Source: Acidimicrobiales bacterium
GTDB taxonomy: Bacteria; Actinomycetota; Acidimicrobiia; Acidimicrobiales; Ilumatobacteraceae
Length of the DNA stretch: 64,000 nt
Assembly: GCA_046081125.1 (NCBI GenBank)
Contig: JBJTVH010000040.1
Location: 109 to 64,108 of the forward strand
Direction: 5' to 3'
Shown piece after piece: positions 12,994-32,604 of this stretch. Positions within the stretch are counted from its first letter, which is position 1, and each line of letters begins with the position of its first letter. The notes under the pieces are model-generated. The model saw only the letters and a list, made by a program, of their open reading frames with translations, did no database searches and was not told where the DNA came from. The position numbers and the translations under genes were made by a program.

Positions 12994-13014
12994 GCCCTAA
13001 GCCTACCGACGCGC

Positions 13015-14232: not shown

Positions 14233-14293
14233 CACCCCACGATGCCACGCCACTGCGGCACCGGGCACCCGACCCGCATCCGGGCCTCGGCCC

Positions 14294-15046: not shown

Positions 15047-15090
15047 GTGTTCGATCCTGATGGGGGCGGCGTGATCTGTCAAGCGCGACC

Positions 15091-15921: not shown

Positions 15922-16382
15922 TCGACTTCTCCCGCACCTTCCACACCGGCATCCGAGTGCCCGACATCCGCGCCGCGATGGCCGAGCTGTCCGACCAGCT
16001 CGGCGTCACCTGGGCGGCGCTCCAGGAGCGGGACCAGGCCGTGTGGACCCCGGAGACCGGGCTGGTGACCACCCCGCTCAAGTTCACCTACTCCTGCGAG
16101 GGGCCGGTGCACCTCGAGCTTCTCCAGGGTCAACCCGGCACCTACTGGTACGGCGCCGACGCACCGGGCCCGCACCACATCGGGGTGTGGGTCGACGACG
16201 TGAAGGCCACCACCGAAGCCGCCGTCGCCGCCGGATGGACGCTGCTGTCGGCCGGGGCGCCGCCCGAGCAGGGGTACGGAGCGTTCACCTATGTCCGCTC
16301 CCCGCAGGGAGTCATCGTCGAACCGGTCTGGAGCGCAGTCATCCCGGCGTTCGAACGCTGGTGGGCGGGCGGCTCGCTGTGA
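15918..16382 (+). CDS. VOC (glyoxalase/bleomycin-resistance fold) family protein
   Basis: GTG 15918 overlaps the trmH-like stop (GTGA). FHTGIRVPDI... and HHIGVWVDDV are typical paired beta-alpha-beta-beta-beta module signatures. Confidence 0.7.
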   Translation: MIDFSRTFHTGIRVPDIRAAMAELSDQLGVTWAALQERDQAVWTPETGLVTTPLKFTYSCEGPVHLELLQGQPGTYWYGADAPGPHHIGVWVDDVKATTEAAVAAGWTLLSAGAPPEQGYGAFTYVRSPQGVIVEPVWSAVIPAFERWWAGGSL

Positions 16383-16774
16383 GCATCCAGGTCACCACCG
16401 GCGCGGCGCTCGTGTGCAGCTTCGGGATCGCGCCGTCCACGCTCACCGTCGTGCCGACCGGTCCCCCCGTGATGGCCGGCGGAGCGCCGGCCGCCACCGT
16501 GCAGGACAACAAGCCGATGGCCAACGTCGCTCCGTTCGGCATGTGCACCACCCTCACCAACCCGCAGGTCGCCGCGGCCACCTCCGCGGCGCTCGGCGTG
16601 CTCACGCCGCAACCGTGCCTCCCGGTCACCACCGCGCCGTGGACCCCGGGGTCGACCTCGGTGCTGATCGGCGGCCAGCCGGCCCTCGGGTCCACCTGCA
16701 CGCTGCTGTGCCAGTGGGGCGGCACGATCACCATCACCGCACCGGGCAGTGCCACCACGGTGATGACCGGCTGA
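16379..16774 (+). CDS. DUF4280 (PAAR-like spike-tip) protein
   Basis: GTG 16379 overlaps the VOC stop (GTGA). 131 aa with DUF4280-type pattern ...GAALVCSFGIAPSTLTV...NVAPFGMCTTLTNPQVAAATSAALGVLTPQPC.P......W.PGS..VLIGG.PAL...C.LLCQWGG.ITI. Confidence 0.8.
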   Translation: MSIQVTTGAALVCSFGIAPSTLTVVPTGPPVMAGGAPAATVQDNKPMANVAPFGMCTTLTNPQVAAATSAALGVLTPQPCLPVTTAPWTPGSTSVLIGGQPALGSTCTLLCQWGGTITITAPGSATTVMTG

Positions 16775-16902
16775 CCCGCAGCAGCCCGGACCCGCCCGGC
16801 CGGTGGACGCACCGGGGTGTGTCAAGATGCCGGCCGCCGTTGGTCGACGCCGCTGCGGAGGGTTCGGATGCCTGGACGGAGTGCCGTCGTGAAGGTTCCG
16901 TC

Positions 16903-17523
16903 GTGAAGATCCCCGTGTTCGTCCATGCCGATGATCCGGTCCTGCAGGCCGGGGTCACGGCGCTCTTGCGTGGTCGCCCCGAGGCGACCGTGGTCGAGGC
17001 CACCGACCTCGACACGGCCCGCGTGGTGATCGTCGCGGCCGACGACGTCGACGAGCCGACCGTTCGCACCGCTCGGGCGTTGCAGCGCAACGGCTCGATG
17101 CGGCTGGTGCTCGTGATCACCAACCTCGGCGACGCGGCGCTGCTGGCCGGGATCGGTGCGGGCGCCTGCGGGTTCGTGCGCCGATCGGAGGCCACCCCCG
17201 AGCGCCTCGGTGCGGTCGTGCGCAGTGCCGCGTCGGGAGACGGTGCCGTGCCACCCGACCTGCTCGGGCGCCTGCTCGAACACATGAGCTCCGTGCAGAG
17301 CTCGATCCTCGAACCCCGCGGGCTGTCGCTGTCGGGCCTGTCGGAGCGAGAGACGACGGTCCTGCGGCTCGTGGCCGAGGGGCTCGAGACCTCCGAGATC
17401 GCCGAGCGGTTGTGCTTCTCCGAGCGCACCGTCAAAGGCGTCATCCACGAGGTGACGACCCGGCTGCGGCTGCGCAACCGGGCCCAGGCCGTCGCCTACG
17501 CCGTGCGGCAGGGCCTGATCTGA
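16903..17523 (+). CDS. LuxR/NarL-family regulator with atypical receiver-like N-domain
   Basis: GTG 16903. C-terminal HTH LSERETTVLRLVAEGLETSEIAERLCFSERTVKGVIHEVTTRLRLRNRAQAVAYAVRQGLI. The N-terminal 120 aa are receiver-like. Confidence 0.85.
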   Translation: MKIPVFVHADDPVLQAGVTALLRGRPEATVVEATDLDTARVVIVAADDVDEPTVRTARALQRNGSMRLVLVITNLGDAALLAGIGAGACGFVRRSEATPERLGAVVRSAASGDGAVPPDLLGRLLEHMSSVQSSILEPRGLSLSGLSERETTVLRLVAEGLETSEIAERLCFSERTVKGVIHEVTTRLRLRNRAQAVAYAVRQGLI

Positions 17524-17616
17524 GCCGGACACGTCCGCAAGGGAAGCCGCCCCTGCCCGAAGGGGCGCACGAGTAGCCGTTCCCTCCCTGTACGGGGCGT
17601 CCTACCGTCGCCGACG

Positions 17617-18318
17617 GTGATCCACGAGGTCGACGACGCAATCCGAGCCCTGCTGCGCCGCGATGCCATCCGGGGTACGGACATCGACATCGTGTTCGAC
17701 GCGCCCACGAAGGAATGGTCGAGCCGGCGCAATGCGCCGACGATCGACGCCTACCTCTACGACATCCGGGAGGACGTGCGCCGCCGCGAGGTCGGCCGGG
17801 TCGACGTCCGCACCGACGGCCTGGTCACCGCCCGTGTCGGCCCGCCACGCTGGTTCAAGCTGTCCTACCTGCTGACGGCCTGGACGCAACGGCCCGAGGA
17901 CGAGCACCGACTGCTCGCCGCCATGCTGCGCGGGCTGTTGCGCTACGAGGCGCTGCCGGCCGACCTGCTGACGGGTTCGCTGGGCGATCTCGGCCTACCC
18001 GTGCCGTACACCTGCGGGCTCCCGCCACCGGAGGACCGGGCGTTGTCGGACGTGTGGTCGGCCCTCGGTGGCGAGTTGAAGCCCTCGCTCGATCTCGTCG
18101 TCATCGCGCCGTTCGATCTGTCGCGCGACCACGAGTTCGGACCGCCGGTCACCGAGGAGACCCGGCTCGTGGTGAGCACCGGTCGCAATCTCGCCACGAA
18201 CGACTGGGCCCCCGAACGCAGCGAGCCCCCTCGGGTTCCGCTGGCCTCCGAGGAGCGCGTCGTCGGCCCGCCGCAGCGGCCCGGCCGACGGGTGCGGATC
18301 ACGGAACTGCCCCGATGA
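17617..18318 (+). CDS. DUF4255 protein (Afp16/Pvc16-like tail terminator/cap)
   Basis: The N-terminus, with IDIVFDAPTKEW...PTIDAYLYDIRED...FKLSYLLTAW, matches the DUF4255 pattern. It is translationally coupled (ATGA) to the AAA+ ATPase, as in eCIS loci. Confidence 0.8.
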   Translation: MIHEVDDAIRALLRRDAIRGTDIDIVFDAPTKEWSSRRNAPTIDAYLYDIREDVRRREVGRVDVRTDGLVTARVGPPRWFKLSYLLTAWTQRPEDEHRLLAAMLRGLLRYEALPADLLTGSLGDLGLPVPYTCGLPPPEDRALSDVWSALGGELKPSLDLVVIAPFDLSRDHEFGPPVTEETRLVVSTGRNLATNDWAPERSEPPRVPLASEERVVGPPQRPGRRVRITELPR

Positions 18319-20291
18319 ACGCCGCCGAGCGCTACCTGCAGGGCCGGCTCGACGGTGTGCGCGCCCGCGTAGCCGCTGCGATCGAGCGACGCCGCGCCGG
18401 CGATCCCGACCCCGGCGATCGCTTCCGCGGGCTCTACGTCAGCGACGAGCAGGCGGGTCGGCTGCTCGACGACCGGCCGCCACTCGCCGACGTCCCCACC
18501 CTCGACGACGACCTCGAGCGCTGGGCCGACGAGCGCGAGCAGGATGGCGCCGTCGTGCACCTGCGCGACACCGCCCGGGCCTTCGGGCTCGATCCGGTCG
18601 AGGTCGAGCTGATGCTCGTCGCCGCCGCACCGGATCTCGATCCCCGCCTCGAGCGCGCCTACGGCTACCTGCACGACGACGTCACCCGACGGCGGGCCAC
18701 GATCGGCCTCGCGATCGAGCTGACCGGCGGCCGGCCCGACGACCCGGCGGCCCGGGCCCGGCTCGGCCCGGTCGGCACGCTCGTGCGGTTCGGGCTCGTC
18801 GTGGTGGAGGAGACCGACCGGCCGGTGCTGTCGCGGTCGCTGCGCGTGCCGGACTGCGTGCTCGATCACCTGCTCGCCGGCCAGGGCGCCGACCCGGTGG
18901 TCGACGCCCTGCGAGAACGGCCCGTCGCGGCGAACGACATCGACGGCGAATCCTTGGCCCGCGCGCTGCGCTTCGGGTGCCCGCTCGTCTACGTGCGCGA
19001 CCGGCTCGGGGCGGCGACGCTGTCGTTCGCCGTGCGCGGCGTCCACGCCGCCGGCCGGGAGGCGCTCGTGGTCGATCTCGACCGTCTCGCCCCCGGTGCC
19101 GACGTCGCCGCAGTGACCCAGTCGCTCGTGCGCGCCGCCCGGCTCGACGGGGCGGTGCTGGTGGCCGGGCCGATCGAGGCACTGTCCGAGCGTGACGCCG
19201 CGGCGGCCCGGCAGCTCGCCGACGCCGAGGTCGACACCGTGCTGATCGGACACCGGGCCTGGGACCCGGTGTGGTCGCGCCGACCGCCCCTGCAGCTCGA
19301 CCCGCCGGACATCACCGGTGACTTCGCCGCAGGCCTGCCGTTCCGCCTCACCCCCGAGCAGGCCGCCCGGGCGCGCGCCGCGGCCGAACTGCAGGCGACG
19401 GCCTTCGGCGAGCCGGTCACCCTCGACCACCTCGCGGCGGGGGCCCGGGCCCAGAACGCGAGCGGCCTCGAGCGGCTGGCATTGCGGATCTCTCCGGTCG
19501 CCGGGTTCGACGACCTGGTCCTGCCCGAGCCCGTGACACAGCAACTCACCGACATCGTGGCCCGCGTCCGCCATCGGACCCGGGTGCTTGGCGACTGGGG
19601 GATGCGGCGTTCGGCCGGCAAGGGCCGTGGGGTGACGGCACTGTTCGCCGGCGACTCGGGCACCGGCAAGACGCTCTCGGCCGAGGTGGTCGCCGGGGCG
19701 CTCGGCCTCGACCTGTACGTGATCGACCTTGCGACGGTGATCGACAAGTACATCGGCGAGACCGAGAAGAACCTCGACCGGATCTTCCGGGAGGCCGACC
19801 GGGTGAACGGCGTGCTGCTGTTCGACGAAGCCGACGCGATCTTCGGCAAGCGCTCCGAGGTCCATGACGCCCGGGATCGCTACGCCAACGTCGAGGTGGC
19901 CTACCTCCTGCAGCGCATGGAGCGGTTCGACGGCATCGCCATCCTGACCACGAACCTGCGGGCCAACCTCGACGACGCATTCCTGCGCCGCCTCGACGCC
20001 CTCGTCGATTTCCCCACCCCGGACGAGCCGAGCCGTCGCCTGCTGTGGGAGCGCCACCTCCCCCGCAGCCTGCCCACCGGCTCCGACGTCGACCTCGGGT
20101 TCCTCGCCCGCGCGTTCGACCTCCCGGGCGGCAACATCCGCAACATCGCCGTGTCCGCCGCGTTCCTGGCCGCCGCCGCCGACCGGGACGTCGGGATGCC
20201 CGATCTGATCAAGGCCACCGTGCGCGAGTACCGCAAGCTCGGACGGCTGTGCCTGGAATCCGAGTTCGGGCCGTACTTCTCGCTCGTCTGA
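18315..20291 (+). CDS. AAA+ ATPase (Afp15/Pvc15-like)
   Basis: ATG 18315. Long N-terminal region followed by a single AAA+ module: Walker A GDSGTGKT, Walker B VLLFDEADA, sensor-1 ILTTN, second region of homology LRRLD. Confidence 0.9.
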   Translation: MNAAERYLQGRLDGVRARVAAAIERRRAGDPDPGDRFRGLYVSDEQAGRLLDDRPPLADVPTLDDDLERWADEREQDGAVVHLRDTARAFGLDPVEVELMLVAAAPDLDPRLERAYGYLHDDVTRRRATIGLAIELTGGRPDDPAARARLGPVGTLVRFGLVVVEETDRPVLSRSLRVPDCVLDHLLAGQGADPVVDALRERPVAANDIDGESLARALRFGCPLVYVRDRLGAATLSFAVRGVHAAGREALVVDLDRLAPGADVAAVTQSLVRAARLDGAVLVAGPIEALSERDAAAARQLADAEVDTVLIGHRAWDPVWSRRPPLQLDPPDITGDFAAGLPFRLTPEQAARARAAAELQATAFGEPVTLDHLAAGARAQNASGLERLALRISPVAGFDDLVLPEPVTQQLTDIVARVRHRTRVLGDWGMRRSAGKGRGVTALFAGDSGTGKTLSAEVVAGALGLDLYVIDLATVIDKYIGETEKNLDRIFREADRVNGVLLFDEADAIFGKRSEVHDARDRYANVEVAYLLQRMERFDGIAILTTNLRANLDDAFLRRLDALVDFPTPDEPSRRLLWERHLPRSLPTGSDVDLGFLARAFDLPGGNIRNIAVSAAFLAAAADRDVGMPDLIKATVREYRKLGRLCLESEFGPYFSLV

Positions 20292-20297
20292 TCGCCC

Positions 20298-23200
20298 TCA
20301 CGGCGGCGCCACGGACATGTTCGGCTCCGGCGCCGCGGGCGACTCCGAGGAGCCGTACTCCGACGCCGTGCCGTCGACCGCGGCCCGGCCGACGCCCGAG
20401 AGCACCCGGGCGATCGTGCTGCGGTAGGCGAGCCAGCGGGCATGGTTCGCCATCTGCGCCGACATCGCCTCGATGGCCGAGGCGCTGTGGGCGAGGTTCG
20501 CCTCCTGCCGCAACGCCGTGAGCAGGCTGGTCGACTGCTGGGTGACGGCGGCGAGCGCCGCTTCGGCATCGGCCCGGATCGCCGCATCCACGACACCGCG
20601 ATCGGCGCGCACCTTGATGCTCTCGAATCGGGTCACCAGGTCGGCGAACACGCCTTCGGCCGGGCCCTCGAAGCCGACCTCCGCCATACGTCGGCCGTAC
20701 TTGCCGATGCTGCGGAACGCGTCCGCAAGCTGTCCCGGGTTGACGGCGTGGTGCAGTTCCTCCACCGCGTGACGGATCTTGGGGATCTGGTCGATCACCG
20801 AAGACATCCGATCGACGGCGGACATCGGTGCGCCGAGCGGTCCGATCCCGCCGGGTGGCTCGTACAGGCCTCGCTCGGTCACGTAGCGCCGGGTGCCGCC
20901 GCTGGTGAAGTAGCCGCCCTCCTCGGCGGCGTTGATCATCGACTGCCGCTCGACGATCGACTCGGCCACCCGGGCCTGCGCGGCGGTATCCCCGGACCGG
21001 CAGGCCTCGACGAGTTGCTGCTGAAGGGCGTCCACCTCGTGCGACAGCGCGTTGGCCTGCGTCGCGTTCATCACCGACACCCGCCGCACCGGGATCCCGG
21101 CGGCATCCATCTGGGCGCGCAGCGCAGCGACCGCCGCCTCGTCGCCGGCCTGCTGGGCCATCTGGAGCTGCGAGTTCATGACCATCACCTGCTGCGAGGC
21201 CGCCGTGCGCCGGGCGATGTCCTCCCGCAGCGCATCGGGCACCACCTCGGTGAAGGCCCGCATGCGGGCGGCGTCGGTGAAGAAGTCGTTCTTCAGCAGC
21301 CGGTTCAACCCTCCGGGCCCGGTCCCGGCTCGCTCGGCCAGGAACAGCCGCGCCCGGTCACGGTTCTCGGCAGCGAAGGTGCCGTAGGTGGAGATGTCGA
21401 GGTCGTTCTTGAACGACCCGCGCGATCCGGTCGCTTCGAGCAACGGCTGACCCTCGGCGATCCCCTCCCGTCGCAGCCCGTTCGGCGCCCAGTTCAGGAG
21501 ATCCCCGTAGAGCACTTCGCGCCAGGCCACGAGCGCCTTGCCGGTCTCGGACTCGTTGCCGAGCACCGACGACAACATCGTCCATCCCCCGGCCTGGTCG
21601 AGCAGGCCCTTGGGGCCGAGGGCGGCGAGCCCGTCGCGCGCCGCCGCCTCGGCCGCAGCACCCCGCAACTTGCCGCTCGCGATCAACGCCACCCGCTGAC
21701 CGACCGAGCGCGACACCGCCGCGCCGGCCCCGGAGGCACCCGCCTCGACGCCCTCGCGGGCGAGCAACTCCTGGTAGGCGAGCACCTGCCGGCCCGCCGC
21801 CGAGTCCCGCCCGACCGCGGTGAGCAACTCCTCGGCGCTCTTCCCCGACAGGCGCATCGCCTCGGGCACCCCGACCTCGCCGATCCCGCGCGCCAGCACC
21901 TCGGCGGCGTTGGGCGGAAGCGCACCCCGCCCGATCTCGGCGAGCGCGGCGGCCCCCATGCGCTCTTGCGCCGCTCGGGTGACGCCGCGCTCGGCAAACA
22001 ACGCGCGGCCGCGCCCCACACTCTGGAAGCCGTCCAGGAACGCGAAGACCGTATCGAGGATCGCTGCGACGAGCGCCGCATCGGCCTGCCCCTGTGAAAC
22101 GAGCGCCGTCTCCGGTGACGTCGAGGCCCGGGCTGCGACCGCAAGGTCCTCCCACTGCTCCCAACTGCGCGCCGCCATGCTCGCACTGGTGGCCACGCCG
22201 CCGACGAGCGCCACGGTGGCCAAGCCGCCGCTCGCGATCTCGGCGACCACGAACAACGCGCCCGACAGCACGCCGCCGCCGATGGCGAGCAGGGTCTGCA
22301 TCCCCTCGTGGTCGCCGATCACGCCTTGGCCGATGGTGCGGTAGAAGCGGCCCTGCTCGGCGTAGAGCTGGCCGTGGATGGGCTGCAGGTCCCGCCAGTC
22401 GAGGTCGCCGGAATCGATCTTCGGCTGGGTTTCGCGGATCTTGGTCTCGGTCTCGCGCAGCTGGGTGGCCATCTCGGTGCGGGCCTGCTGTGGGCTGGCC
22501 TGCGCCAGGGCATCGACCCGGTTGTCACGTATGGCGAGATGCACGGTCGGCGACATCGCCGAATACCCCGTGAGGACCGCCTGAACCCTGTCCCAGTTGG
22601 TCTTCACCGCGTCCCAGCTCGAGAACCCCGGCTCGGTCGAGGCACGGGTCGGTTGGGTGTTCGGATCGAAGCGGGACACCACCTCGTCGGGTCCGAACGA
22701 GGGCATGTCGCTGTAGTTCGGAATCGTGTCGTAGCCGACCGGGATCTCCCGCAACCCAGCGGCGAACTGCTGGGCCCGGCCGACCTCGACGAGGATCTGC
22801 TGCACGAACGCGAGCCGGTCGTCCTGGTCGTTGCGGACCGCTTCGTTCGGCGCCGACGCCTCCAACCCCATCGCCTCGATCTCGCCGTGGACGCTCGTGA
22901 GGTTCCGGGCCATGTAGTCCCGGGCCCGCTGCTTGGTGTCGTTCTCGAACCGGGTCCGCAGCGCCGCCACAGCGCCGATCGAGTGCAGCTCCGCGCCCCG
23001 GGCGATGCACCCCTCCCACAGCGCGAAGTTGGCCTCGGCCACGCCCTGGATTCCGGCGCCGAAGCTGTCCCAGATCCGCTCCATCGCCGACTCGTCGAGC
23101 GGACCGGCCCAGCCCTGGTTCGAGAGCATCGACAACGCTCGGATCCGTTCCGGTTGACTGAACGACCCCCACGACATGATGTCCTTGAGGGGTCCGACGT

Positions 23201-23471
23201 CGTCGAGGGTGATCGCCCGGTCGTAGCGGCTGCGGTCGGTCTCGGCCGCCCGCTCCAACGGGGCGGCGAGCTGCTCGTCGGTGATCCGAGCGACGAACGT
23301 CCCGGCGGCCTGGTTGCCCGCGAGCCGCTGCACCCGACCCACCATCGCTGCGGCCATGCCGGCCGGTGCGGCCGGATCGAGGACCGGCGGGGCACCCTCC
23401 GGCGACCGGCCGGCGGTGCGCGCCGTGCGAGCCGGTGCCGGTTCCGCCGCCGGCCGCGCCCGCTGCGTCAC
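20298..23471 (-). CDS. large (1057 aa) CIS-associated orphan protein; candidate cargo/effector or structural extension
   Basis: GTG 23471 overlaps the stop of the gpI-like gene (GTGA). The N-terminus has MVGRVQRLAGNQAAGTFV. Central hydrophobic hairpin LLAIGGGVLSGALFVVAEIASGGLATVALVGGVATSA. The remainder is Ala/Glu/Arg/Gln-rich and looks helical. No family recognised. Confidence 0.75.
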   Translation of the reverse strand: MTQRARPAAEPAPARTARTAGRSPEGAPPVLDPAAPAGMAAAMVGRVQRLAGNQAAGTFVARITDEQLAAPLERAAETDRSRYDRAITLDDVGPLKDIMSWGSFSQPERIRALSMLSNQGWAGPLDESAMERIWDSFGAGIQGVAEANFALWEGCIARGAELHSIGAVAALRTRFENDTKQRARDYMARNLTSVHGEIEAMGLEASAPNEAVRNDQDDRLAFVQQILVEVGRAQQFAAGLREIPVGYDTIPNYSDMPSFGPDEVVSRFDPNTQPTRASTEPGFSSWDAVKTNWDRVQAVLTGYSAMSPTVHLAIRDNRVDALAQASPQQARTEMATQLRETETKIRETQPKIDSGDLDWRDLQPIHGQLYAEQGRFYRTIGQGVIGDHEGMQTLLAIGGGVLSGALFVVAEIASGGLATVALVGGVATSASMAARSWEQWEDLAVAARASTSPETALVSQGQADAALVAAILDTVFAFLDGFQSVGRGRALFAERGVTRAAQERMGAAALAEIGRGALPPNAAEVLARGIGEVGVPEAMRLSGKSAEELLTAVGRDSAAGRQVLAYQELLAREGVEAGASGAGAAVSRSVGQRVALIASGKLRGAAAEAAARDGLAALGPKGLLDQAGGWTMLSSVLGNESETGKALVAWREVLYGDLLNWAPNGLRREGIAEGQPLLEATGSRGSFKNDLDISTYGTFAAENRDRARLFLAERAGTGPGGLNRLLKNDFFTDAARMRAFTEVVPDALREDIARRTAASQQVMVMNSQLQMAQQAGDEAAVAALRAQMDAAGIPVRRVSVMNATQANALSHEVDALQQQLVEACRSGDTAAQARVAESIVERQSMINAAEEGGYFTSGGTRRYVTERGLYEPPGGIGPLGAPMSAVDRMSSVIDQIPKIRHAVEELHHAVNPGQLADAFRSIGKYGRRMAEVGFEGPAEGVFADLVTRFESIKVRADRGVVDAAIRADAEAALAAVTQQSTSLLTALRQEANLAHSASAIEAMSAQMANHARWLAYRSTIARVLSGVGRAAVDGTASEYGSSESPAAPEPNMSVAPP

Positions 23472-24046
23472 CGGGGAACGACCTCGACACGCACGGGCAC
23501 ATGGGCCGGGGTCGCTGCGCGTACCAGCCGGCTGACCCGATCGAGTTCGGCGGGAATGAGCGGCGCCGCCACCCGAACGAGGATCCCCGGCGCGCTCGTC
23601 CCCGGCGCGACGCCACCGGGCCGGGCCGAGACCGCGACCCCCCCGTTGTCGAGCACCTCGACCCGACCGCCGAGGTACGCCTCGACGAGCTCGCGCACGC
23701 CCTTGGCGGTCCCCCGCCACCGGAACAGCTCGACGCCGGAGGCAACGAGACGGCGGAGCTGCTCAGGCCGCCAGTTGTCGTCGACCGCAAGGCCCACCCA
23801 ACCGGCCACCCAGGACAGCACGTCGAGCGGCGAGAGCGCCGGATCGAGGTAGGCATCGAGGTTGTCGAGCGTCAGCCACACCGGGGCGAGCACGGCGTCG
23901 AGGGCGTCACACAGGAGCATCGCGTTGGCGTCGAGTTCCTGGTAGATCGCCGGAAGCAACGATCCGAGCCCGACCGCGCCGCGCCCGACGAAGCCGGGGA
24001 CGGGTTCGACCCCCGGCAGCGACCAGTCCTCGAACCCGGCCCTCAT
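23468..24046 (-). CDS. phage tail protein, P2 gpI-like domain (baseplate wedge, Afp12-position)
   Basis: ATG 24046 overlaps the baseplate J stop (ATGA). 192 aa. LPAIYQELDANAMLLCDALDAVLAPVWLTLDNLDAYLDP..SPLDVLSWVAGWVGL resembles the gpI N-terminal tail-protein domain. The longer ORF-track version (to 25252) overlaps baseplate J in another frame. Confidence 0.75.
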   Translation of the reverse strand: MRAGFEDWSLPGVEPVPGFVGRGAVGLGSLLPAIYQELDANAMLLCDALDAVLAPVWLTLDNLDAYLDPALSPLDVLSWVAGWVGLAVDDNWRPEQLRRLVASGVELFRWRGTAKGVRELVEAYLGGRVEVLDNGGVAVSARPGGVAPGTSAPGILVRVAAPLIPAELDRVSRLVRAATPAHVPVRVEVVPR

Positions 24047-26016
24047 GTCGACCCCTGCAACCGCACCTCGCAGCGCTCCAGGTACGGAAGCCCGTTGGCT
24101 TGCGGGACCAGGCGCGGTTGGGGCTGCGGGGCGTACTGCCCGGTGGCGAGGTCGATGGCGAACAGCAGGAGGTCCTCCACCTGGTCCACCCCCGGAAGGC
24201 GGGCCACCGCGCCGACGAGTTCCCCCGTGGTGACCGGCCGCCCGAGCGGCCATCCGGTGCCGTCGGGTCCGCCGTGGACCGGGTGCAGGTGGCGGCGCAC
24301 GGCGGCGACCACCCGCGCTTCGAGTTCGGCGGCGTTCGCGGTGGCCCACGGCCGCACGAACACGACGATCCGCACGCCTTGGTAGACGGGCGGCTCGATC
24401 ACCACGCGGGCGCCGAGGACCCGGCGCAGATCCAGTTCGGCGGCCACTCGGCCCAAGGTGTCGGCGTCGGGTTGGAGTTGCTCCGGGCTGGGCTGCTCGG
24501 GCACGTGGGGCACCACGAGCAACCGGACGACGCCCGGCTCGGCCGCCGGCGTGAGGCAGTGGGCCCGGGCCAGGTTCCGAGACGCCTGCAGCGCAAGGTA
24601 CTCGTAGTCCTCGGCCGTGACCGCCCGGTCCCGCGTGCGGAACGCGAGCGGGGCGCGTGCCTTCGCCGCGTCGACCGTCTCGCCGTCGACCCCGCCGGTC
24701 GCCGCCCGCCGGTTCTCCACGCGTGCCACCGAGGGCACGGAGGCCTTCAGCACCCGCAGGGTTCCCGGCAGGACGTTGCCGACCCGGCCGCCGCCGTGCA
24801 GGTAGCGGCGCACCCGCAACACGCTGCCGGCCGGGGGGACCGCGCCGTACTGGCGCAGCGCACCCTCGGGCTCGCGCACCGCCGGTCCGAACACGATCCG
24901 CCCTGCGGTGGCGTCGATCCGGAACACGCGATCGGTCGGACCGGCATCGACGAAGTCGTCCACCCGGCGCCACTCGTGCACCACGGCCGCCGTGGTGCCG
25001 TCGGCCTGCTCGAGGTCCTGCATGGCCTCGATCACCTCGGGTTCGCCGCCGAACACCACCGGGCGGTGCTCGAGGTCGTAGGTCTGGCCGGGTGCCCCCT
25101 CGGAGTTCCCGAGCACCTCGGCGAGCACCTCGGTGGCGTGCCGGGCGCCCGTGGTACCGCCGACGGTGAACGCCATCAGGTCGGTGATCCGGGGCGAGGC
25201 CCGGTACGGGTTGTCGCCCGGAGGGGTGGCAGCCACCACGCAGCGCACCCAACCGCCCCGCTGACCCGACACGGTCGAGGCCGCATGATCGGCGGGGAGG
25301 TGCAACACCACGTCACCGGGACGGTTGAACCCACCTGTGGTGTCCCGCTCGATCTCGCACGGCTTCCAGCCGTCGGCGGTCCATGCCTCCCAGACCCGGG
25401 GCGGCCGAAGCGGGTTGATGCCGAACCCCTCGACGCTGCCGGCGATGCGCAGGTCGAGCACACACGACGGCGCCGGATCGGACAGCCCGACGAAGCACGC
25501 GTCGCCGGGTTGCGGCGGCTCGGCGAACAGCGCCACGTCCCGACCGGTGGCCAGTGCGTTGGTGCGGTCCTCGAGTGCACCGCCGGCGGGCTGCACGGCG
25601 ATGGCGATCCGCCGGACCGGAACGATCGAGAGCTCCTCGACCGTGCGGAACACGACCGCTTCGGTCCGGTCGGTCCGCTCGGTGGCCACCTCGACGCCGG
25701 CCGGGACGGTCACCACGCGCGACTGCGGCGCGGTCAACCAGAACGTCACGTCTGTCGTCGCGGCGTGGGGCGGTCGCAGCTCGATGCCGAGCAGGTCGAG
25801 GAACTTCACGTAGAGGCGGTCGGGGACCCGGTTGAGCCGGTAGAGCAGCTGCTCCACCATGAACGCGAACGTCTCGATCAGCGTGACGCCGGGATCCGAC
25901 ACGTTGTGGTCGGTCCAGCCCGTCCACTCCGGCCAGCGGCGCTGCACCATGCGCTTGGCCTCGTCGACGAGCTGCTGGAACGTTCGGTCGTCGAGGTTCG
26001 GGGCGGGGAGGCTCAC
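24043..26016 (-). CDS. baseplate J-like protein (Afp11 / T4 gp6-like)
   Basis: 657 aa. N-terminus SLPAPNLDDRTFQQLVDEAKRMVQRRWPEWTGWTDHNVSDPGVTLIETFAFMVEQLLYRLN is typical of eCIS baseplate J proteins. Its start overlaps the gp25 stop. Confidence 0.85.
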   Translation of the reverse strand: MSLPAPNLDDRTFQQLVDEAKRMVQRRWPEWTGWTDHNVSDPGVTLIETFAFMVEQLLYRLNRVPDRLYVKFLDLLGIELRPPHAATTDVTFWLTAPQSRVVTVPAGVEVATERTDRTEAVVFRTVEELSIVPVRRIAIAVQPAGGALEDRTNALATGRDVALFAEPPQPGDACFVGLSDPAPSCVLDLRIAGSVEGFGINPLRPPRVWEAWTADGWKPCEIERDTTGGFNRPGDVVLHLPADHAASTVSGQRGGWVRCVVAATPPGDNPYRASPRITDLMAFTVGGTTGARHATEVLAEVLGNSEGAPGQTYDLEHRPVVFGGEPEVIEAMQDLEQADGTTAAVVHEWRRVDDFVDAGPTDRVFRIDATAGRIVFGPAVREPEGALRQYGAVPPAGSVLRVRRYLHGGGRVGNVLPGTLRVLKASVPSVARVENRRAATGGVDGETVDAAKARAPLAFRTRDRAVTAEDYEYLALQASRNLARAHCLTPAAEPGVVRLLVVPHVPEQPSPEQLQPDADTLGRVAAELDLRRVLGARVVIEPPVYQGVRIVVFVRPWATANAAELEARVVAAVRRHLHPVHGGPDGTGWPLGRPVTTGELVGAVARLPGVDQVEDLLLFAIDLATGQYAPQPQPRLVPQANGLPYLERCEVRLQGST

Positions 26017-26414
26017 GGCTGCTCCTGCGGGATGACGTAGAAGGGGAACACGAGGTTGCGCGGATCATTCGAGCCGCGGATCTCGTAACGGATGTCGATG
26101 TACAGGCACGAGCCGTCGGTCTCGTCGGCCCGCACGGTCACGTCGAGGACGTCGATGCGCGGTTCCCATCGCTCGAGTGCCCGAAGCACGGCGTCGCGCA
26201 GGCGTCCGGCGGTCTCCCGGTCGGCGGGAGCGAACACGTAGTCGTGGATGCCGCAACCGAACTCGGGCCGCATCGGGCGCTCGCCCGGTGCCGTCGCCAG
26301 GATCAGCCGGATGGCCTCCTCGATCTCCTGGACCCCGGTGACCAATGCGAGCGACCCGGACGGGTCGAGCCGCAACGGGAAGGCGATCCCTGCACCGATC
26401 GGACTGCGCGCCAT
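26013..26414 (-). CDS. GPW/gp25-family baseplate wedge protein (Afp9-like)
   Basis: 133 aa. GIAFPLRLDPSG...EEAIRLILATAPGERPMRPEFGCGIHDYVF is the gp25/GPW signature. Confidence 0.9.
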   Translation of the reverse strand: MARSPIGAGIAFPLRLDPSGSLALVTGVQEIEEAIRLILATAPGERPMRPEFGCGIHDYVFAPADRETAGRLRDAVLRALERWEPRIDVLDVTVRADETDGSCLYIDIRYEIRGSNDPRNLVFPFYVIPQEQP

Positions 26415-26427
26415 GGCCGTGCTCTCC

Positions 26428-28158
26428 TCAGTTGAGCTGGATCGGTTGACCGGACACCCGCACCGGGCCCGACCCGCTGACGGCGACTTGACCGCCGTCG
26501 AGATCCAGGTTCGATTGGGCCTTGACCTTCACCGATCGCCCGGACAGCTCGAGGGTGCCGGTGGCCTCGACGGTCACATCGCCCCGGGCGGAGATCTTCA
26601 CGTCGCCGTCGCTCTGCACGGTCAGGCTCTTGCCCGCTTGGTCGAGACGGATCGAGATCGCACCGTCGCCAGTTCGCAGTTCGATCCCCTCGGTGCCGCT
26701 CGCGTCGACGAAGACGAGTTGGTGGCCGGTGCGAGACGTGAACAGACGGTTGTTGACCGCGCCGTTGCCCGAGTCGAGCAGCTGGCCCGGGCCGGTCACC
26801 GCTTTGTCCTGGCCGTTGTAGAGCCCGCCGAGCACGTAGGGGTGGTTCATGTCGCCCTGCTCGAACGCGACGAGGACCTCGTCGCCGACCTCGGGCAGCA
26901 ACAGCCAGCCGCGGTCGGCACCTGCGCCGGCGTGACTGACCCGGGACCACACGCTCACGAACTGATCGGCGAGCCACGGGAAGCGCAGGCGCACCCGGCC
27001 GAGTTGGTCCGGGTCGTCGACGTCGTCCACGACGGCCGGCACGACGCCGGCGATCCGGGTCGACCCCCCATCACCCCCGCCGGTGAGCCCGAGCAGCGAG
27101 CGGGCCTCCCGGCCCGACACGGTGAACAGCGTCCGATACCCCTCGGTCGGGTCGTACCGGTGCGTGGTGGAGGTCAGCACGTACGTGCCGTCGAAGGGCG
27201 CGCCGGCGAGCGCTAGTCGCACTGCCGCACCGGCCCGCAACTTGGGATCGCCGTGCGCGATCCCGTCGATCTCGGCGAAGCTCGCCGCCACGTGCTCGGC
27301 GAGCGCCCGCGCGGCCGCGTCGGCGGCCCCTGCGTTGCGGATCGGCGGATCGACGGCGACCAGGGGCGGGCCCTTGAACAGGCCCGCGAGTTCGGCCGGC
27401 GTGTGGCCGTTGGCGATCGTGACGGTGCGGGCCGGCGCCGTCGCCGTGATCGCCCGCTTGTCGAGCGGGTCCCATCCCCGTACCTCGACCTGCTCGACCT
27501 GTTCGGCCGCGGTCACCGCGGCCCGAAGCTCGACCAGGTTGCCGCCCACCGTCAGCGTGAGCGGATCCTGGCTCGAGAGGTCGGCCTGCCCGGGTGCCCC
27601 CTGCGACGTCGACGGGGGTCGGAAATGGAGGCGGCCGTCGCTCACGAGCACCTCGTTGCCGACCTCCCGGGCCAGGCGACGAAGGAACTCCCAATCGTTC
27701 TCACTGGCCTGCGTGACATGCGGGTGGGTCGAGTTGGTCGCCACGATGTCGCCCGACCGGAGATGGTGCCGGTCGGCCACCTTCCGAGCGATGTCGGCAT
27801 AGGTGACGTTGACGTAGCTCTCCGTGATGCGGCCGTGGAACAACCGGTGGGACTCGTCGTAGCCCCGCACGACCGTGTAGCTGGTCCCGGCGTGGATCTC
27901 GGCCTCCAGCGCCGTGATCTCCCCTTCGATGAGCGGCTCGCCGGCGGGATGCGCGTCGTTGATCACCACCACCTTGAGCTTCGCCCCGATACGAGCCCCC
28001 ATGCGCTCGACGGCGTTGCGCGCCGGATCCTTGAGCGTGATCGAGAACGAATCCGGCAGGTGGAGGTGGTCCTCGACTTCCACCTCGACGATGTCGACGC
28101 CGTCGACGCGCGAACCGCCCACGCTGATCGCGAGGTTGTTGGACGGTTGCGCGGGCAC
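26428..28158 (-). CDS. VgrG / phage late control gpD-like spike-hub protein (Afp8-like)
   Basis: 576 aa. gpD-like N-domain (...SFSITLKDP...TVVRGYDESHRL...NDWEFLRRLAREVG). gp5-OB-like middle (RVRLRFPWL...SVWSRVSHAGAG). C-terminal beta-helix repeats. Confidence 0.9.
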   Translation of the reverse strand: MPAQPSNNLAISVGGSRVDGVDIVEVEVEDHLHLPDSFSITLKDPARNAVERMGARIGAKLKVVVINDAHPAGEPLIEGEITALEAEIHAGTSYTVVRGYDESHRLFHGRITESYVNVTYADIARKVADRHHLRSGDIVATNSTHPHVTQASENDWEFLRRLAREVGNEVLVSDGRLHFRPPSTSQGAPGQADLSSQDPLTLTVGGNLVELRAAVTAAEQVEQVEVRGWDPLDKRAITATAPARTVTIANGHTPAELAGLFKGPPLVAVDPPIRNAGAADAAARALAEHVAASFAEIDGIAHGDPKLRAGAAVRLALAGAPFDGTYVLTSTTHRYDPTEGYRTLFTVSGREARSLLGLTGGGDGGSTRIAGVVPAVVDDVDDPDQLGRVRLRFPWLADQFVSVWSRVSHAGAGADRGWLLLPEVGDEVLVAFEQGDMNHPYVLGGLYNGQDKAVTGPGQLLDSGNGAVNNRLFTSRTGHQLVFVDASGTEGIELRTGDGAISIRLDQAGKSLTVQSDGDVKISARGDVTVEATGTLELSGRSVKVKAQSNLDLDGGQVAVSGSGPVRVSGQPIQLN

Positions 28159-28161
28159 CGC

Positions 28162-28839
28162 TCAGCTCCCCGAGGGCACGACGAGGCGGCGGCCGGGCCG
28201 GACGCGCAACGGATCGTCGATGTCGTTGGCCCGGGCGATCTCCCGCCATCGGGTCGGGGTGCCGAGCAGTCGGGTGGCGACATGGGCGAGCCGTTCGCCA
28301 CCGTCGAGCTGATGCAGGGCCATCGCCTCGATCGCCCCCGAGGTGGGGTTCTGGCGCGGCGGAACGACGGCCAGCACCTCCTCGAGCGTGAGGGTCACCA
28401 CGGCGCGAATCGCCTGACCCGACGACGCGAACCGGGTGTACTTCACCGCAACGGTCTTCACCGTTGCGCAGTGGACGTAATCGGTGCCGCCCCAGGAGAA
28501 CTTGGCATACGGCGCGACCGGCTTGTTCTGGTCGCCCCCCTTGATCGGCATGACCGCGGCCATCAGCTTCGCCGCCACCTCGACGACCGCCGGGGCGTCC
28601 TTGCCGTCCTCGGACCGGTCGAGGAACATCTCGATGGTGATGGTGCCGCCCTTGGCGCCGTTGTACTCCGGCGGCGCCGGCGTCTTGCCGTTCTTCGGCT
28701 TCCACTCGGCCGAGCGCTGCACGGTGAACTCCTTCGGGTTGAAGGAGAACTCGAACTTTGCGATCTCGTCGCCGAGTCCCCGGCCGCCGTTGGCCGGCTT
28801 GTGCAACGTGAGGGAGGCCTTCGCCAGCTTGCCGTCCAT
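28162..28839 (-). CDS. tube-initiator-like protein with C-terminal LysM (Afp7 / P2 gpX-like)
   Basis: 225 aa. C-terminal LysM: HQLDGGERLAHVATRLLGTPTRWREIARANDIDDPLRVRPGRRLVVP. Confidence 0.85.
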   Translation of the reverse strand: MDGKLAKASLTLHKPANGGRGLGDEIAKFEFSFNPKEFTVQRSAEWKPKNGKTPAPPEYNGAKGGTITIEMFLDRSEDGKDAPAVVEVAAKLMAAVMPIKGGDQNKPVAPYAKFSWGGTDYVHCATVKTVAVKYTRFASSGQAIRAVVTLTLEEVLAVVPPRQNPTSGAIEAMALHQLDGGERLAHVATRLLGTPTRWREIARANDIDDPLRVRPGRRLVVPSGS

Positions 28840-28843
28840 CGCC

Positions 28844-29281
28844 TCAGAACCCCTTGTCCTCGTACTCGAACCCGTGGTGGGCCAACTCCAGGGTTTCGGT
28901 CGCCACCTTCGCCGACTCCGCGTTGAACGACGGGCCCGTCCAGCGCACCGGGATCACCCCGGTGAGACTCCACGAGGCCAGGTCGCGACCCTCGGCGTCC
29001 TTGGCCGTGATGCGACCGGTCTTGCGGGTGACCTTGCCCCCCATCGACGAGAACCACTTGGCGACCTTGGCGCTCGAACGGTCGAGCGGTCGGGTGAGCT
29101 TGATGTTCGTGTACTTCACGCGCACCGGGAGCTGGTGGACGAAGGTGTTGTTGCCACCCTCCTCGCGCTGCTCGACCACGACCTCGGCCCCGAGGCCGTC
29201 GCACTGGGTGAACGCGCCGAGTTCAACGCCGTCGATCTCGACGCTGAAGTAGAGCTGGATTCCCGGATCGCCGTCGGCCAT
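28844..29281 (-). CDS. phage tail tube protein (T4 gp19-like; Afp5-like paralogue)
   Basis: 145 aa. F.VEIDGV..G.F..C.GL..E.....EGG.N.....LP.R.KY.NI.L.R... is the pattern of eCIS tube proteins. Confidence 0.9.
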   Translation of the reverse strand: MADGDPGIQLYFSVEIDGVELGAFTQCDGLGAEVVVEQREEGGNNTFVHQLPVRVKYTNIKLTRPLDRSSAKVAKWFSSMGGKVTRKTGRITAKDAEGRDLASWSLTGVIPVRWTGPSFNAESAKVATETLELAHHGFEYEDKGF

Positions 29282-29291
29282 CGATCTCCCC

Positions 29292-31514
29292 CTACCGCCG
29301 GGTCCGCGTCAGCGAGCCGGCCCGCTCCCGGTCATGGCGCAGTTCCTGCTTGAGCAGCAGCCGCATGCGCCCGTAGAGGCGCTTGGCCAATTCGTCGAGT
29401 TCCGCTCCCGACGCAGCGGCGGCCCCGCTGCTCGCCCCGGATCCTCCGGCCGTCGCCGCGCCCCCGCCCGGTCCCCCGTCGGCCTCCCGCTGGACCGGTT
29501 CGTCGTCGGCCGGGGCGTCGAACACGACAGAGCCATCGGCGTGACGTTGCGCCACTCCCGAGGCCACGGCGACGGCACCGGCATCGACCCACGACCCGGA
29601 ATCGGGCGCCGCAGGCGTCGACCCGCCTCGCCAGTCGAGCGAGGCTGCGTTTGCGCGTGCGACCGGCGCGCCGGACAGGACGGCACGCTGCACGGACGGT
29701 CGGTCCGGCGTCGAGGTCGGCGACGCACCTCCAAGCGAACTGGACATGGCGCCCGAGGACGCCGCCGCGGGTGCCACGCCATCGGCAGCCGGCACGGGCC
29801 GCACGCTCGATGCCACCGGCCGATCACCGAGCAGCGCCGCCGTCAGCGGACTATCGCTCGCCATGCGCTGCAACGGCCCTGCTGGCTCGATCGCGTCGAG
29901 CACGGCATCGGCGCTCGACGCCGCCGGGTTCGCCTCCGGCATTGCGTGGCGCTGGACGGGCAGCGGGGCTGCGACCGGGCTCGTCCCCTCGGTGGGCCCG
30001 TCGAATATTGCGCCGGAGAGTGGCGAGCCCGCCCCTGCGGGCGCCTGCGGCCGACGGTCACCGAGCAGCGGGGCGACGGTCGCCGATTCGGCGGTCGTGC
30101 CCGGCTCGCCGGACACGATTGTCGGCCCGGACACGATTGTCGGCCCGGACTCGACCGACGTCCCCGGTACCTCCACTGCGCCGGCAAGATCCGCAACGCC
30201 TCGGGCGGTCGGTGTCCCAGGTGCCGGTAGCCCAGGTGCCGGGGGTACCGATGGCAACGGTGCGCCGAGACCGACCCGACGCGTCGGAACAACCGCCGCC
30301 CCCTCGGTACGTCGCTGCACCACCGGCCCGGCACCGCTTAGGTCGGGCCCCGCCGTCGACGAACCACCAGACCCCGACCGGACCGGCAACGACCCAGCAC
30401 CGAGCACCGGTGCAACCGAGGTCGCGTCCGAACCCGACGCAGGCCCCGCAGCACCGGCGCCGATCAGCGAGCCCGGGATCGGCGCCGGGTCCTGCGCCGG
30501 ACCCGACGATCCCCCGCTGCCCGACGATCCGTCGGCGGCACGACTCACGACCGGTCCGCCCAGGCCGGGGCGACGTGCCGCCGAAGCAGGCGACTCGACC
30601 GGACCCACGCGAGGCGGGGCGCCGGCATCACCCGACCCGTGCTCAGGCGCATCACCTGATGCGCGACCGGCCCCGACGAGCGGCGCCACCGCCGCGGGGT
30701 CATCACCGGCCCCGACGAGCGACGCCGGTTCGCCTGATCCGTCGCCCAGCGGATCGACCGGTAGCTCGACGGGGAGCAAGGCCGATGGCACGGCCGAGCC
30801 GTCGGCTGCCGCTTCGGTCACGGCGCGGCGCTGTACCGACGGCGTCGGGCCCTCCGAGGCCCGAGCCGGAGCCGGCTCGGCCGGCGGCGACACCACGGAC
30901 CCCGTCGGCAGCGCCAGGTCGTCACGGGAGTCGAGACGATCAGCCCAAGCGGACGCCGGCCCTTGCAGCCCAAGGGACGCTGCGTCGGGCACCGTGGCGG
31001 GTTCTGCTGACACCGGCGACGGCTCGGCCGGCGTCGGTTCGCGCACGGCCGTCACCGGCACGGAACGACTCGGCATGGCGACGACCGGCGCAGGACGACG
31101 AGGGCCGTCCAGCGCAACCACGCGCTGGACGGGCGGTCCCGCCGACGGCCCAGGTGCAGCGCTCTGACCCACGTTTCGCCCCTGCGCGACGCGTGCCTCG
31201 GCATCGCGATGCGCCCGGGCGAGCACGAGACCGGCCGGGGCGTCGCTCGACACGGCGTGATCGAGTTGGCGCAACACCAGCGGCGACTGCCACGAGGCCA
31301 AGGACCGGTCGAATCGCCGGTGGACCACCGGCTCGATCGGTGACACCACCGCCGGCATGGCCGGCAGGGTCGTCCAGTCGGCACGCACGGCGCCGCCGAG
31401 CGGCGAGCCCTCGTGCGTGCCGGCGGGCGACCGATCCTGGTCCGGCTGCTCGGCGGCCGGCGAGGCGCCGTCCGCGGCGCCGGTTCGCGCCCGCAACCAG
31501 TCGAACAGGCCCAT
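29292..31514 (-). CDS. Pro/Ala/Gly/Ser-rich low-complexity protein in the tape-measure position
   Basis: 740 aa; ATG 31514. Eight [V/L/A]QR motifs and six L[LVI]G[AD][GR] motifs are spread through a low-complexity body. The charged helical C-terminus is ELDELAKRLYGRMRLLLKQELRHDRERAGSLTRTRR. It lies between the chaperone-like genes and tube2/LysM/VgrG. Confidence 0.7.
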   Translation of the reverse strand: MGLFDWLRARTGAADGASPAAEQPDQDRSPAGTHEGSPLGGAVRADWTTLPAMPAVVSPIEPVVHRRFDRSLASWQSPLVLRQLDHAVSSDAPAGLVLARAHRDAEARVAQGRNVGQSAAPGPSAGPPVQRVVALDGPRRPAPVVAMPSRSVPVTAVREPTPAEPSPVSAEPATVPDAASLGLQGPASAWADRLDSRDDLALPTGSVVSPPAEPAPARASEGPTPSVQRRAVTEAAADGSAVPSALLPVELPVDPLGDGSGEPASLVGAGDDPAAVAPLVGAGRASGDAPEHGSGDAGAPPRVGPVESPASAARRPGLGGPVVSRAADGSSGSGGSSGPAQDPAPIPGSLIGAGAAGPASGSDATSVAPVLGAGSLPVRSGSGGSSTAGPDLSGAGPVVQRRTEGAAVVPTRRVGLGAPLPSVPPAPGLPAPGTPTARGVADLAGAVEVPGTSVESGPTIVSGPTIVSGEPGTTAESATVAPLLGDRRPQAPAGAGSPLSGAIFDGPTEGTSPVAAPLPVQRHAMPEANPAASSADAVLDAIEPAGPLQRMASDSPLTAALLGDRPVASSVRPVPAADGVAPAAASSGAMSSSLGGASPTSTPDRPSVQRAVLSGAPVARANAASLDWRGGSTPAAPDSGSWVDAGAVAVASGVAQRHADGSVVFDAPADDEPVQREADGGPGGGAATAGGSGASSGAAAASGAELDELAKRLYGRMRLLLKQELRHDRERAGSLTRTRR

Positions 31515-31517
31515 GGC

Positions 31518-31664
31518 TCAACGACCTTGGGCGAGTCGCTCCGCCTCGGCCACGAACCGGCGCCGCAGCGGGTGTTCGAGGTCGAGGATGTCGTCGAGCG
31601 GCCAGTGGTAGTGGAAGGCGAGGAACGCCGCTTCCCGGTAGAGCCGGTCCGAGGCGTTCCTCAC
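31518..31664 (-). CDS. small conserved-looking CIS ORF (48 codons), absent from the ORF track
   Basis: GTG 31664 overlaps the upstream stop (GTGA). It translates VRNASDRLYREAAFLAFHYHWPLDDILDLEHPLRRRFVAEAERLAQGR. TGA at 31520..31518 lies 3 nt before the ATG of the next gene. The composition is protein-like and not Arg/Pro noise. It resembles short proteins I recall from actinobacterial CIS loci (possibly DUF6760, unverified). Confidence 0.55.
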   Translation of the reverse strand: MRNASDRLYREAAFLAFHYHWPLDDILDLEHPLRRRFVAEAERLAQGR

Positions 31665-32565: not shown

Positions 32566-32604
32566 GATTGATCACCTCGAAGTCGTTGTGGGCGTGTATC
32601 GGCG

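Follow-up and report, generated by a model that had tools for sequence, protein, structure and literature searches.

A large, unnamed modular protein family includes a candidate effector encoded at the end of a contractile injection system operon in an Acidimicrobiales genome

We analysed a 64,000-nucleotide stretch of contig JBJTVH010000040.1 (the window) from an Acidimicrobiales bacterium of the family Ilumatobacteraceae, with a focus on the gene at 20298-23471, which closes the structural operon of a contractile injection system (CIS). The gene (the target) encodes a protein of 1057 amino acids (aa) that belongs to a large, unnamed, modular family of polymorphic-toxin-like architecture with at least 800 sequence clusters, and its product is probably a cargo or effector of the adjacent CIS. 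Its features, defined from open reading frame (ORF) listings, alignments and an AlphaFold2 (AF2) model with its predicted local distance difference test (pLDDT) scores, are as follows:

20298..23471, minus strand: target gene, 1057 aa plus stop, with a GTG start at 23471 and the stop at 20298-20300 (ORF listing, translation and a frame plot of G+C at the third codon position, GC3)
23468..23471, minus strand: GTGA overlap between the stop (TGA) of a gpI-like gene and the target start (GTG), for translational coupling (read from the sequence)
23220..23471, minus strand: N-terminal leader, aa 1-84, predicted disordered and a proposed loading signal (AF2 pLDDT, conservation)
23304..23333, minus strand: leader motif VQRLAGNQAA, aa 47-56, of the family pattern QRxxGN (translation, family survey)
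22017..23219, minus strand: conserved N-module, aa 85-485, found in essentially all family members (alignments A1, A2 and A3, profile matches, AF2)
22170..22295, minus strand: transmembrane (TM) helical hairpin, aa 393-434, whose turn is conserved as AE-I-A-S-G-G (hydropathy, alignment)
20397..22016, minus strand: C-module, aa 486 to ~1025, ~550 aa, helical with a three-stranded mini-sheet (profile mapping, AF2)
21390..21431, minus strand: TGSRGSFKNDLDIS, aa 681-694, a candidate metal-binding or active-site motif (invariant and near-invariant columns in 60 and in 40 sequences)
21246-21281, minus strand: partner motif FTD..R.H..D (conserved columns)

The target gene is real and is translationally coupled to the gpI-like gene. 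The open frame on the minus strand spans 23720 to 20298, and within it the GTG at 23471 yields the 1057-aa protein, with a GAGG located ~10 nt upstream of this codon and the homologues P0002 and P0003 beginning at the equivalent position. A start at 23720 (1140 aa) was rejected in view of a 250-nt overlap with gpI, a switch in the GC3 frame near 23300-23600 and the start of the homologues at 23471. This assignment agrees with the codon-position G+C content of the minus-strand frame (GC1 0.73, GC2 0.55, GC3 0.88). An earlier note on this DNA had described a 1057-codon ORF at these coordinates, which proved exact; its strand is minus, and the plus-strand reading was rejected because the ORF listing of the window holds no 1057-aa ORF on the plus strand at 20298-23471. 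Long ORFs occur on both strands because the G+C content of the window is ~70%.

The surrounding locus is a CIS cluster composed of a plus-strand operon and a convergent minus-strand structural operon, whose genes are listed below:

16291..17523, plus strand: GerE/LuxR-type regulator, head of the plus-strand CIS operon (Pfam)
17617..18318, plus strand: Pvc16_N tail terminator/cap gene (Pfam E=4.5e-40)
18306..20291, plus strand: Pvc15/Afp15-like AAA+ ATPase (winged-helix domain plus AAA), the presumed cargo loader, convergent with the target (Pfam)
23468..24046, minus strand: gpI-like (Tail_P2_I) baseplate gene, whose ATG overlaps the gpJ stop (ATGA) (Pfam, read from the sequence)
24043..34128, minus strand: remaining structural operon, comprising gpJ, gp25, VgrG, CIS_tube+LysM, tube, a 740-aa VQR-rich protein, DUF6760, a 146-aa ORF, tube and sheath (Pfam)
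29292..31514, minus strand: protein in the tape-measure slot, 740 aa, low-complexity, with eight [V/L/A]QR motifs (translation, shuffle test)

In transcriptional order, the minus-strand operon encodes a zinc-ribbon/TM/PASTA×5 protein, sheath, tube, the 146-aa ORF, the DUF6760 mini-ORF, the 740-aa protein, a second tube, CIS_tube+LysM, VgrG, gp25, gpJ, gpI and finally the target. The earlier note's placement of the target as the last structural gene, its GTG overlapping the gpI-like stop, is confirmed by the GTGA overlap and by the distance of only 6 bp between its stop and that of the ATPase gene (20291-20298). Since no terminator-like hairpin was found in 19800-20800 and the two stops lie 6 bp apart, the target and ATPase transcripts must overlap or end inside coding sequence. 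The target thus lies at the 3' end of the CIS operon and adjoins Pvc15-like and Pvc16-like genes, which is the typical position of cargo genes of extracellular contractile injection systems (eCIS) and of eCIS-associated toxins (EATs), and Pfam revealed no recognisable tail-fibre gene in the cluster. The order gpI, target and convergent ATPase is kept in the two closest genomes, both Acidimicrobiales metagenome-assembled genomes (MAGs), in which the target is 80-86% identical, the ATPase 94-96%, gpI ~65% and the other structural proteins compared 90-99%.

The target had been described as an orphan, and it has no match in Pfam, NCBIfam, PDB sequences or PHROGs, nor did a PDB profile search return anything relevant. 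A word-indexed protein search retrieved 14 relatives, and the same 14 were recovered when it was repeated with a 60-sequence profile. When a profile of these 14 relatives was run against 1.84 billion cluster representatives, 805 matched at E≤1e-3 and 457 at E≤1e-30. The orphan label is therefore wrong, even though no curated family covers these proteins. Placement of the best 160 of the 805 matches on the profile revealed 70 proteins with both N- and C-modules and 75 with the N-module and another C-terminus, and the family follows a three-part plan of a disordered leader, a conserved ~400-aa N-module with a TM hairpin and a variable C-terminus. Roughly half of the best family matches carry the C-module, and in others known toxin domains take its place.

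The anatomy of this family is that of polymorphic toxins, as a conserved N-terminal region is joined across homologues to diverse C-terminal toxins. A Pfam scan of 53 members with the N-module only found the eCIS_core/DUF4157 domain (PF13699) at the N-terminus of 25 and an AHH nuclease in 11, and further C-termini included Ntox21, PT-HINT, ART, a CdiA-type RNase A (RNAse_A_bac), a MafB19 deaminase and an ADP-ribosyl exotoxin (ADPrib_exo_Tox). At each of seven loci that encode AHH-type members, a homologous Imm11-like ORF (~210-226 aa) comes next, and it is the combination of the N-module, interchangeable toxins and these Imm11-like ORFs that supports this classification. One deltaproteobacterial MAG (CAVYWJ01) alone has seven loci (L013-L019) that match the N-module. 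An Imm11-like ORF of ~210-226 aa follows each of L013-L017, and CIS structural genes were not detectable within 10 kb of L013-L019 with the proteins of the window. Weak matches to SseC, a type III secretion system (T3SS) translocator, were found in 2/53 members, and this relationship was kept as a hint only. The idea that the 740-aa VQR-rich protein and the target together correspond to long relatives such as P0050, by fusion or fission, was rejected, as P0050 has an N-terminal region of 770 aa that looks globular and not low-complexity like the 740-aa protein, contains GHSQGS (GxSxG-type) and shows no BLAST similarity to that protein, and the only match in this comparison was a low-complexity similarity to P0072.

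A genome scan with the two most conserved peptide patterns of the family (alignment A1) located 13 genome loci, none of them in Streptomyces. A member lies directly after an AAA+ ATPase gene in L001/L002/L009 and L003, with further eCIS_core genes nearby, and the ATPase gene immediately adjoins family members in L001, L003, L007, L008 and L022. Among these, the Solirubrobacterales CIS cluster (L022) has the order GerE, a small eCIS_core gene, an AAA gene and then the member. In L021, the member P0050 follows a DUF6760 mini-ORF between tube and baseplate genes, and in Portibacter lacus (L020) a PAAR gene immediately precedes the member and the gene for a 2960-aa eCIS_core+TNT protein follows it. 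Relatives of the target are thus associated with toxins, with immunity genes and with CIS genes.

The Portibacter lacus locus has features of its own. At 9234-27911, two giant eCIS_core proteins are encoded after the PAAR-motif gene, a 2887-aa protein that combines three DUF4157 copies with N and C modules and a 2960-aa protein that bears a TNT toxin. The opposite strand carries, upstream, a gene set of nSTAND, ThiF, UQ_con and JAB.

The leader is the least conserved region of the target (60% identity to close relatives vs 85-94% elsewhere), and aa 1-64 have pLDDT <50 in the full-length AF2 model, which was built from a 60-sequence alignment and has a mean pLDDT of 80.9. In the family, the leader often bears either QRxxGN or a DUF4157/eCIS_core domain: QRxxGN occurs in 41/148 family leaders, ~45-80 aa from the N-terminus, an upstream HExxH occurs in 50/148 members, and only 6 have both, such that the two are largely mutually exclusive. 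The density of [LVIMA]QR is 0.87 per 100 aa in leaders vs 0.18 per 100 aa elsewhere, a ~5-fold difference. A VQR leader motif shared with the tape-measure-slot protein had been proposed for the target, and this holds at the level of the family; the single VQR of the target is itself not above chance, as 4070/5000 shuffles reach it, and gains meaning because QRxxGN is conserved in the family. The eight [V/L/A]QR motifs reported for the 740-aa protein are real: V, L or A stands before every QR dipeptide of this protein, eight in total, and 0/5000 shuffles reach 8. As a guess, the leader motif might serve as a tube-lumen contact, an ATPase contact or a processing site.

Apart from one beta-hairpin, the N-module is mostly helical; it includes PKIDSGDLDWRDLxPIH at aa 350-366 and is modelled with pLDDT >90 over most of its length. 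The hydrophobic hairpin that had been noticed mid-protein shows the strongest conservation of any stretch in the family; in the target it spans aa 393-434 with Kyte-Doolittle (KD) hydropathy >1.5, and F407, E411, G416, A418, T419 and G425 are invariant. The hairpin motif was found in 99/160 proteins, where its two arms have a mean KD of 1.80 and 1.32. Directly after it comes RSWEQWEDL (22143-22169), in the segment RSWEQWEDL / GQADAAL...DTVFAFLD, and hairpin and following segment together form the best conserved part in distant members, with 53-72% identity.

In the C-module, G619, R651, G682, D690, D692, K924 and R928 are invariant across 60 C-module sequences, and T681, R714, D733, P734, R736, H738 and D741 are nearly so. 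The AF2 model places a mini-sheet of three strands (678-680, 691-695 and 728-732) within the helical scaffold, with D690 and D692 on the second strand, G682 in the turn before it and D733 immediately past the end of the third strand. Modelled separately, aa 590-880 reached a pLDDT of 88.5 and a predicted TM-score (pTM) of 0.81, and Foldseek found no PDB match to it at E≤1e-3, the best hits (E 0.57) being designed helical bundles. This conservation pattern resembles an active site, and the C-module may be a metal-dependent enzyme built around D690-x-D692 plus D733, R736, H738, K924 and R928. As interpretations of TGSRGSFKNDLDIS, HAD-type DxDxT and GT-A DxD signatures were considered and then dropped, as the model has three short strands only and no Rossmann-like sheet.

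The candidacy of the target as CIS cargo or effector, raised in the earlier note, is supported by homologues that have DUF4157/eCIS_core N-termini and interchangeable toxins, by the immunity genes of the AHH types and by CIS ATPase and PAAR neighbours. We therefore consider it probable that the target is a cargo or effector of the adjacent CIS, from the DUF4157/eCIS_core effector lineage, in a copy whose peptidase domain was lost or never present. The leader of ~80 aa with its QRxxGN would be the loading signal, by analogy with the AlgoCIS cargos Cgo1 and Cgo2 and the payloads of Photorhabdus virulence cassettes (PVC), and the Pvc15-like AAA+ ATPase may, by the same analogy, recognise this leader and thread the protein into the lumen of the tube or else onto the spike. 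After firing, the N-module would put its TM hairpin into a lipid membrane, placing or translocating whatever is fused at the C-terminus. The C-module might then be the delivered activity, a prediction that leans on the likeness to Cgo1/Cgo2, with Tme and Sle1 (PMC11126660, PMC13277306) as further models for the analogy.

A number of results weigh against this reading. No CIS gene lies within 10 kb of L004-L006 and L010-L019. DUF4157 is absent from the whole 64-kb window, as judged by a six-frame search with a hidden Markov model (HMM) built from family members, for which L001 and L003 served as positive controls with scores of 1e-20 to 1e-32. The target is not followed by an immunity-like gene, the convergent ATPase stop being 6 bp away, and the C-module-bearing relatives have no common downstream ORF. 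Four members (P0017, P0018, P0025 and P0072) extend beyond the C-module, with a weak Ntox4 match there in P0072, so the C-module could be a scaffold and not a payload. The lack of an immunity gene, the lack of a shared downstream ORF and the extra sequence after the C-module together argue against a classical antibacterial toxin. The remote-homology check suggested in the earlier note, Foldseek on AlphaFold models, returned no match at E≤1e-3 for the full-length protein in the PDB or BFVD, as it did for aa 590-880 in the PDB, so that neither module matches a solved or a viral predicted fold.

The alternative that survives best is a non-enzymatic translocon or pore-former, namely a lumen protein of the tape-measure-like kind (a role proposed for Tme and Sle1) that would act by membrane insertion itself and have a helical scaffold for its C-module. 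The almost wholly helical structure of the target and its conserved hairpin are compatible with this, as are the toxin-like tails beyond the C-module in some members and the absence of a conserved immunity partner among C-module relatives. P0050, encoded after DUF6760 with tube genes on one side and baseplate genes on the other, has a slot that can be compared with that described for Tme (PMC11126660), and the nearest BFVD matches of the target are tape-measure and internal virion proteins. All of these fold matches are non-significant, a PHROGs tape-measure match is absent, and the weak SseC signal that would also fit a translocon is limited to 2/53 members. The invariant and near-invariant polar residues on or around the mini-sheet (G682, D690, D692, D733, R736, H738, K924 and R928) would be expected in an active site rather than in a scaffold, and we regard this alternative as unlikely.

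Slightly less probable still is a producer-side membrane adaptor of a cytoplasmic CIS, in which the hairpin would sit in the producer's own cytoplasmic membrane and tether or trigger the baseplate, the protein never being injected. The model for such a role is CisA (SCO4242), which is needed for firing of the S. coelicolor CIS (PMC12237407). Like CisA, the target has an unstructured N-terminus and a membrane segment, and its gene occupies the fibre slot immediately downstream of the baseplate genes (PMC12237407); the lack of both a recognisable tail-fibre gene in the cluster and a following immunity gene would also suit an adaptor. However, CisA has 468 aa, passes the membrane once and has a C-terminal domain that is periplasmic and substrate-binding-like (PMC12237407), whereas the target has 1057 aa, a two-helix hairpin and an all-helical C-terminus, and CisA does not belong to a toxin-bearing family. 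Relatives of the target join the N-module and hairpin to DUF4157 and to toxins of the AHH, ART, RNase and deaminase types that have cognate immunity genes, a pattern that fits exported effectors. Moreover, Gram-negative lineages also have relatives, of which some lie at CIS loci, and the bitopic zinc ribbon/TM/five-PASTA protein that heads the operon is a better anchor candidate.

Pol-beta-fold nucleotidyltransferases have the motif hG[GS]-x(9-13)-Dh[DE]h with an intervening helix. A C-terminal nucleotidyltransferase toxin, to which TGSRGSFKNDLDIS had been likened in the earlier note as a weak and possibly chance resemblance, is very improbable: although G-S...D-x-D is invariant in 60 sequences, lies on a strand-turn-strand and has a third acidic residue (D733) after the third strand, the spacing from G682-S683 to D690 is 6 residues, the model has three short strands only, no nucleotidyltransferase is among the 50 best PDB matches listed for the aa 590-880 model or found with the full-length model, Pfam and NCBIfam give no such match even at E≤1 and the PDB profile search returned nothing relevant, so the idea fails on both spacing and fold. 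The invariance in 60 sequences equally means that the G...DxD pattern is not a chance feature.

Two structural roles also found no support, in line with the initial impression that the protein is neither a fibre nor the conserved tape measure. A tail fibre (Afp13-like) is at odds with the all-helical model, the absence of Pfam and PHROGs matches and the absence of a fibre among BFVD and PDB matches, and a tape measure (Afp14/Pvc14 or a phage tape-measure protein) with the location after gpI, the absence of a PHROGs match and BFVD tape-measure matches at E≥0.6 only.

Comparison with known systems places the target, as the cargo or effector that we favour, closest to EATs and to Cgo1/Cgo2. DUF4157 marks eCIS toxins, often with a very long linker before the toxin domain (PMC8213781), and AlgoCIS cargo has a disordered N-terminal domain that loading requires, a DUF4157 that is optional and dispensable and a C-terminal domain that varies, occupies the tube lumen and is loaded with the help of Alg15 (PMC8894135; bioRxiv 10.64898/2026.05.27.728243). 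As with DUF4157/eCIS_core EATs (Geller 2021, Danov 2024) and Cgo1/Cgo2, the target lies at the 3' end of a CIS operon beside an AAA+ ATPase gene, has a leader predicted to be disordered, a long region and a variable C-terminal domain and shares the QRxxGN / phi-QR leader motifs; for Cgo2 this likeness is one of architecture as described. A third of the target homologues carry DUF4157, as EATs do (50/148 by the upstream HExxH, 25/53 N-only members by PF13699). Unlike DUF4157 EATs, the target itself has no PF13699 match (Pfam E≤1) and, as had been stated before, no HExxH in its 1057 aa, and where the literature describes a very long linker it has a defined ~400-aa N-module with a TM hairpin.

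Tme (BN159_7576, S. davawensis) and Sle1/Sle2 (S. lividans) are further points of reference, Tme and Sle1 being tape-measure-related CIS effectors (PMC11126660, PMC13277306) and the gene for Tme lying immediately upstream of the baseplate genes (PMC11126660). Compared by architecture alone, the target resembles Tme and Sle1 (SLIV_17115), as well as Sle2, in being large and helical with TM helices or a hairpin, swappable C-terminal domains and an association with DUF4157; Sle1 is translocated to lipid membranes, and the relative P0050 (L021) sits between tube and baseplate genes much as Tme does. In contrast to Tme and the Sle proteins, the target follows gpI and occupies neither the tape-measure slot nor a position upstream of the sheath gene; PHROGs gives it no tape-measure signal, and a nuclease domain is absent.

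At the level of the family, the constant N-terminal delivery region with interchangeable toxins and cognate immunity genes resembles Rhs, CdiA and prePAAR effectors of type VI secretion (T6SS), and several paralogues per genome, such as the seven loci of the deltaproteobacterial MAG, are likewise typical of classical polymorphic toxins. The N-terminal TM segments of prePAAR effectors are proposed to aid target-membrane crossing, and the same role is proposed for the TM segments of the family. The differences are that the constant region of the family is a different, unannotated fold, that the delivery machine is an eCIS-type particle, unlike the T6SS, contact-dependent inhibition (CDI) or type VII secretion (T7SS), and that the C-module of the target has no immunity partner.

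While eCIS effectors that combine a leader and TM helices with an exchangeable C-terminus were known already, what is new here is two delimited, confidently modelled modules that are in no curated library and a TM-hairpin module common to hundreds of toxin fusions across phyla. CIS effectors are difficult to recognise, and their membrane crossing after injection is poorly understood; defining both modules as domains would improve effector annotation, including that of copies without DUF4157, and the N-module is a concrete candidate for the membrane-translocation step. Such a definition would also provide a natural chassis for payload swapping in engineered injection systems. A bolder proposal, which we put forward tentatively and hold to be possible without expecting it, is that the N-module is an unrecognised pre-toxin membrane-translocation domain across several phyla, its hairpin carrying any payload over the target membrane, and that the C-module is a new enzyme fold on D690-x-D692 that is delivered without a need for immunity in the producer. 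If true, this translocation role would explain the long "linkers" of DUF4157 effectors.

Other observations concern the remainder of the CIS cluster and its flanks. The 740-aa protein in the tape-measure slot has no family in Pfam or PHROGs and ends in a basic helical tail, ELDELAKRLYGRMRLLLKQELRHDRER. Between the tube gene and this gene lies the DUF6760 mini-ORF (48 aa, 31518-31664, minus strand), which also directly precedes the family member P0050 in another CIS cluster (L021 9688-9846). The first gene of the CIS operon (34253-37411, minus strand, start probably M271) is directly upstream of the sheath gene, and its product has a zinc ribbon (MNCERCGQ...C..PSC), a Pro-rich linker, one TM segment at ~aa 575-597 and five PASTA repeats, which makes this bitopic envelope protein a candidate CisA-like anchor or peptidoglycan sensor of the CIS. 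Directly beside the cluster, 37400-43850 has a G+C content of 0.65 vs 0.70-0.74, contains ORFs without family and ends with a phage-type integrase (42360-43730, minus strand) next to a tRNA-Ala (43772-43848, minus strand), and is probably an integrative element inserted at the tRNA. On the other side, 10-15 kb from the CIS cluster, are a PASTA Ser/Thr kinase (PknB-like, 4539-6689, plus strand), the second PASTA protein of the window, and a Fasciclin+OmpA protein (11075-12553, plus strand).

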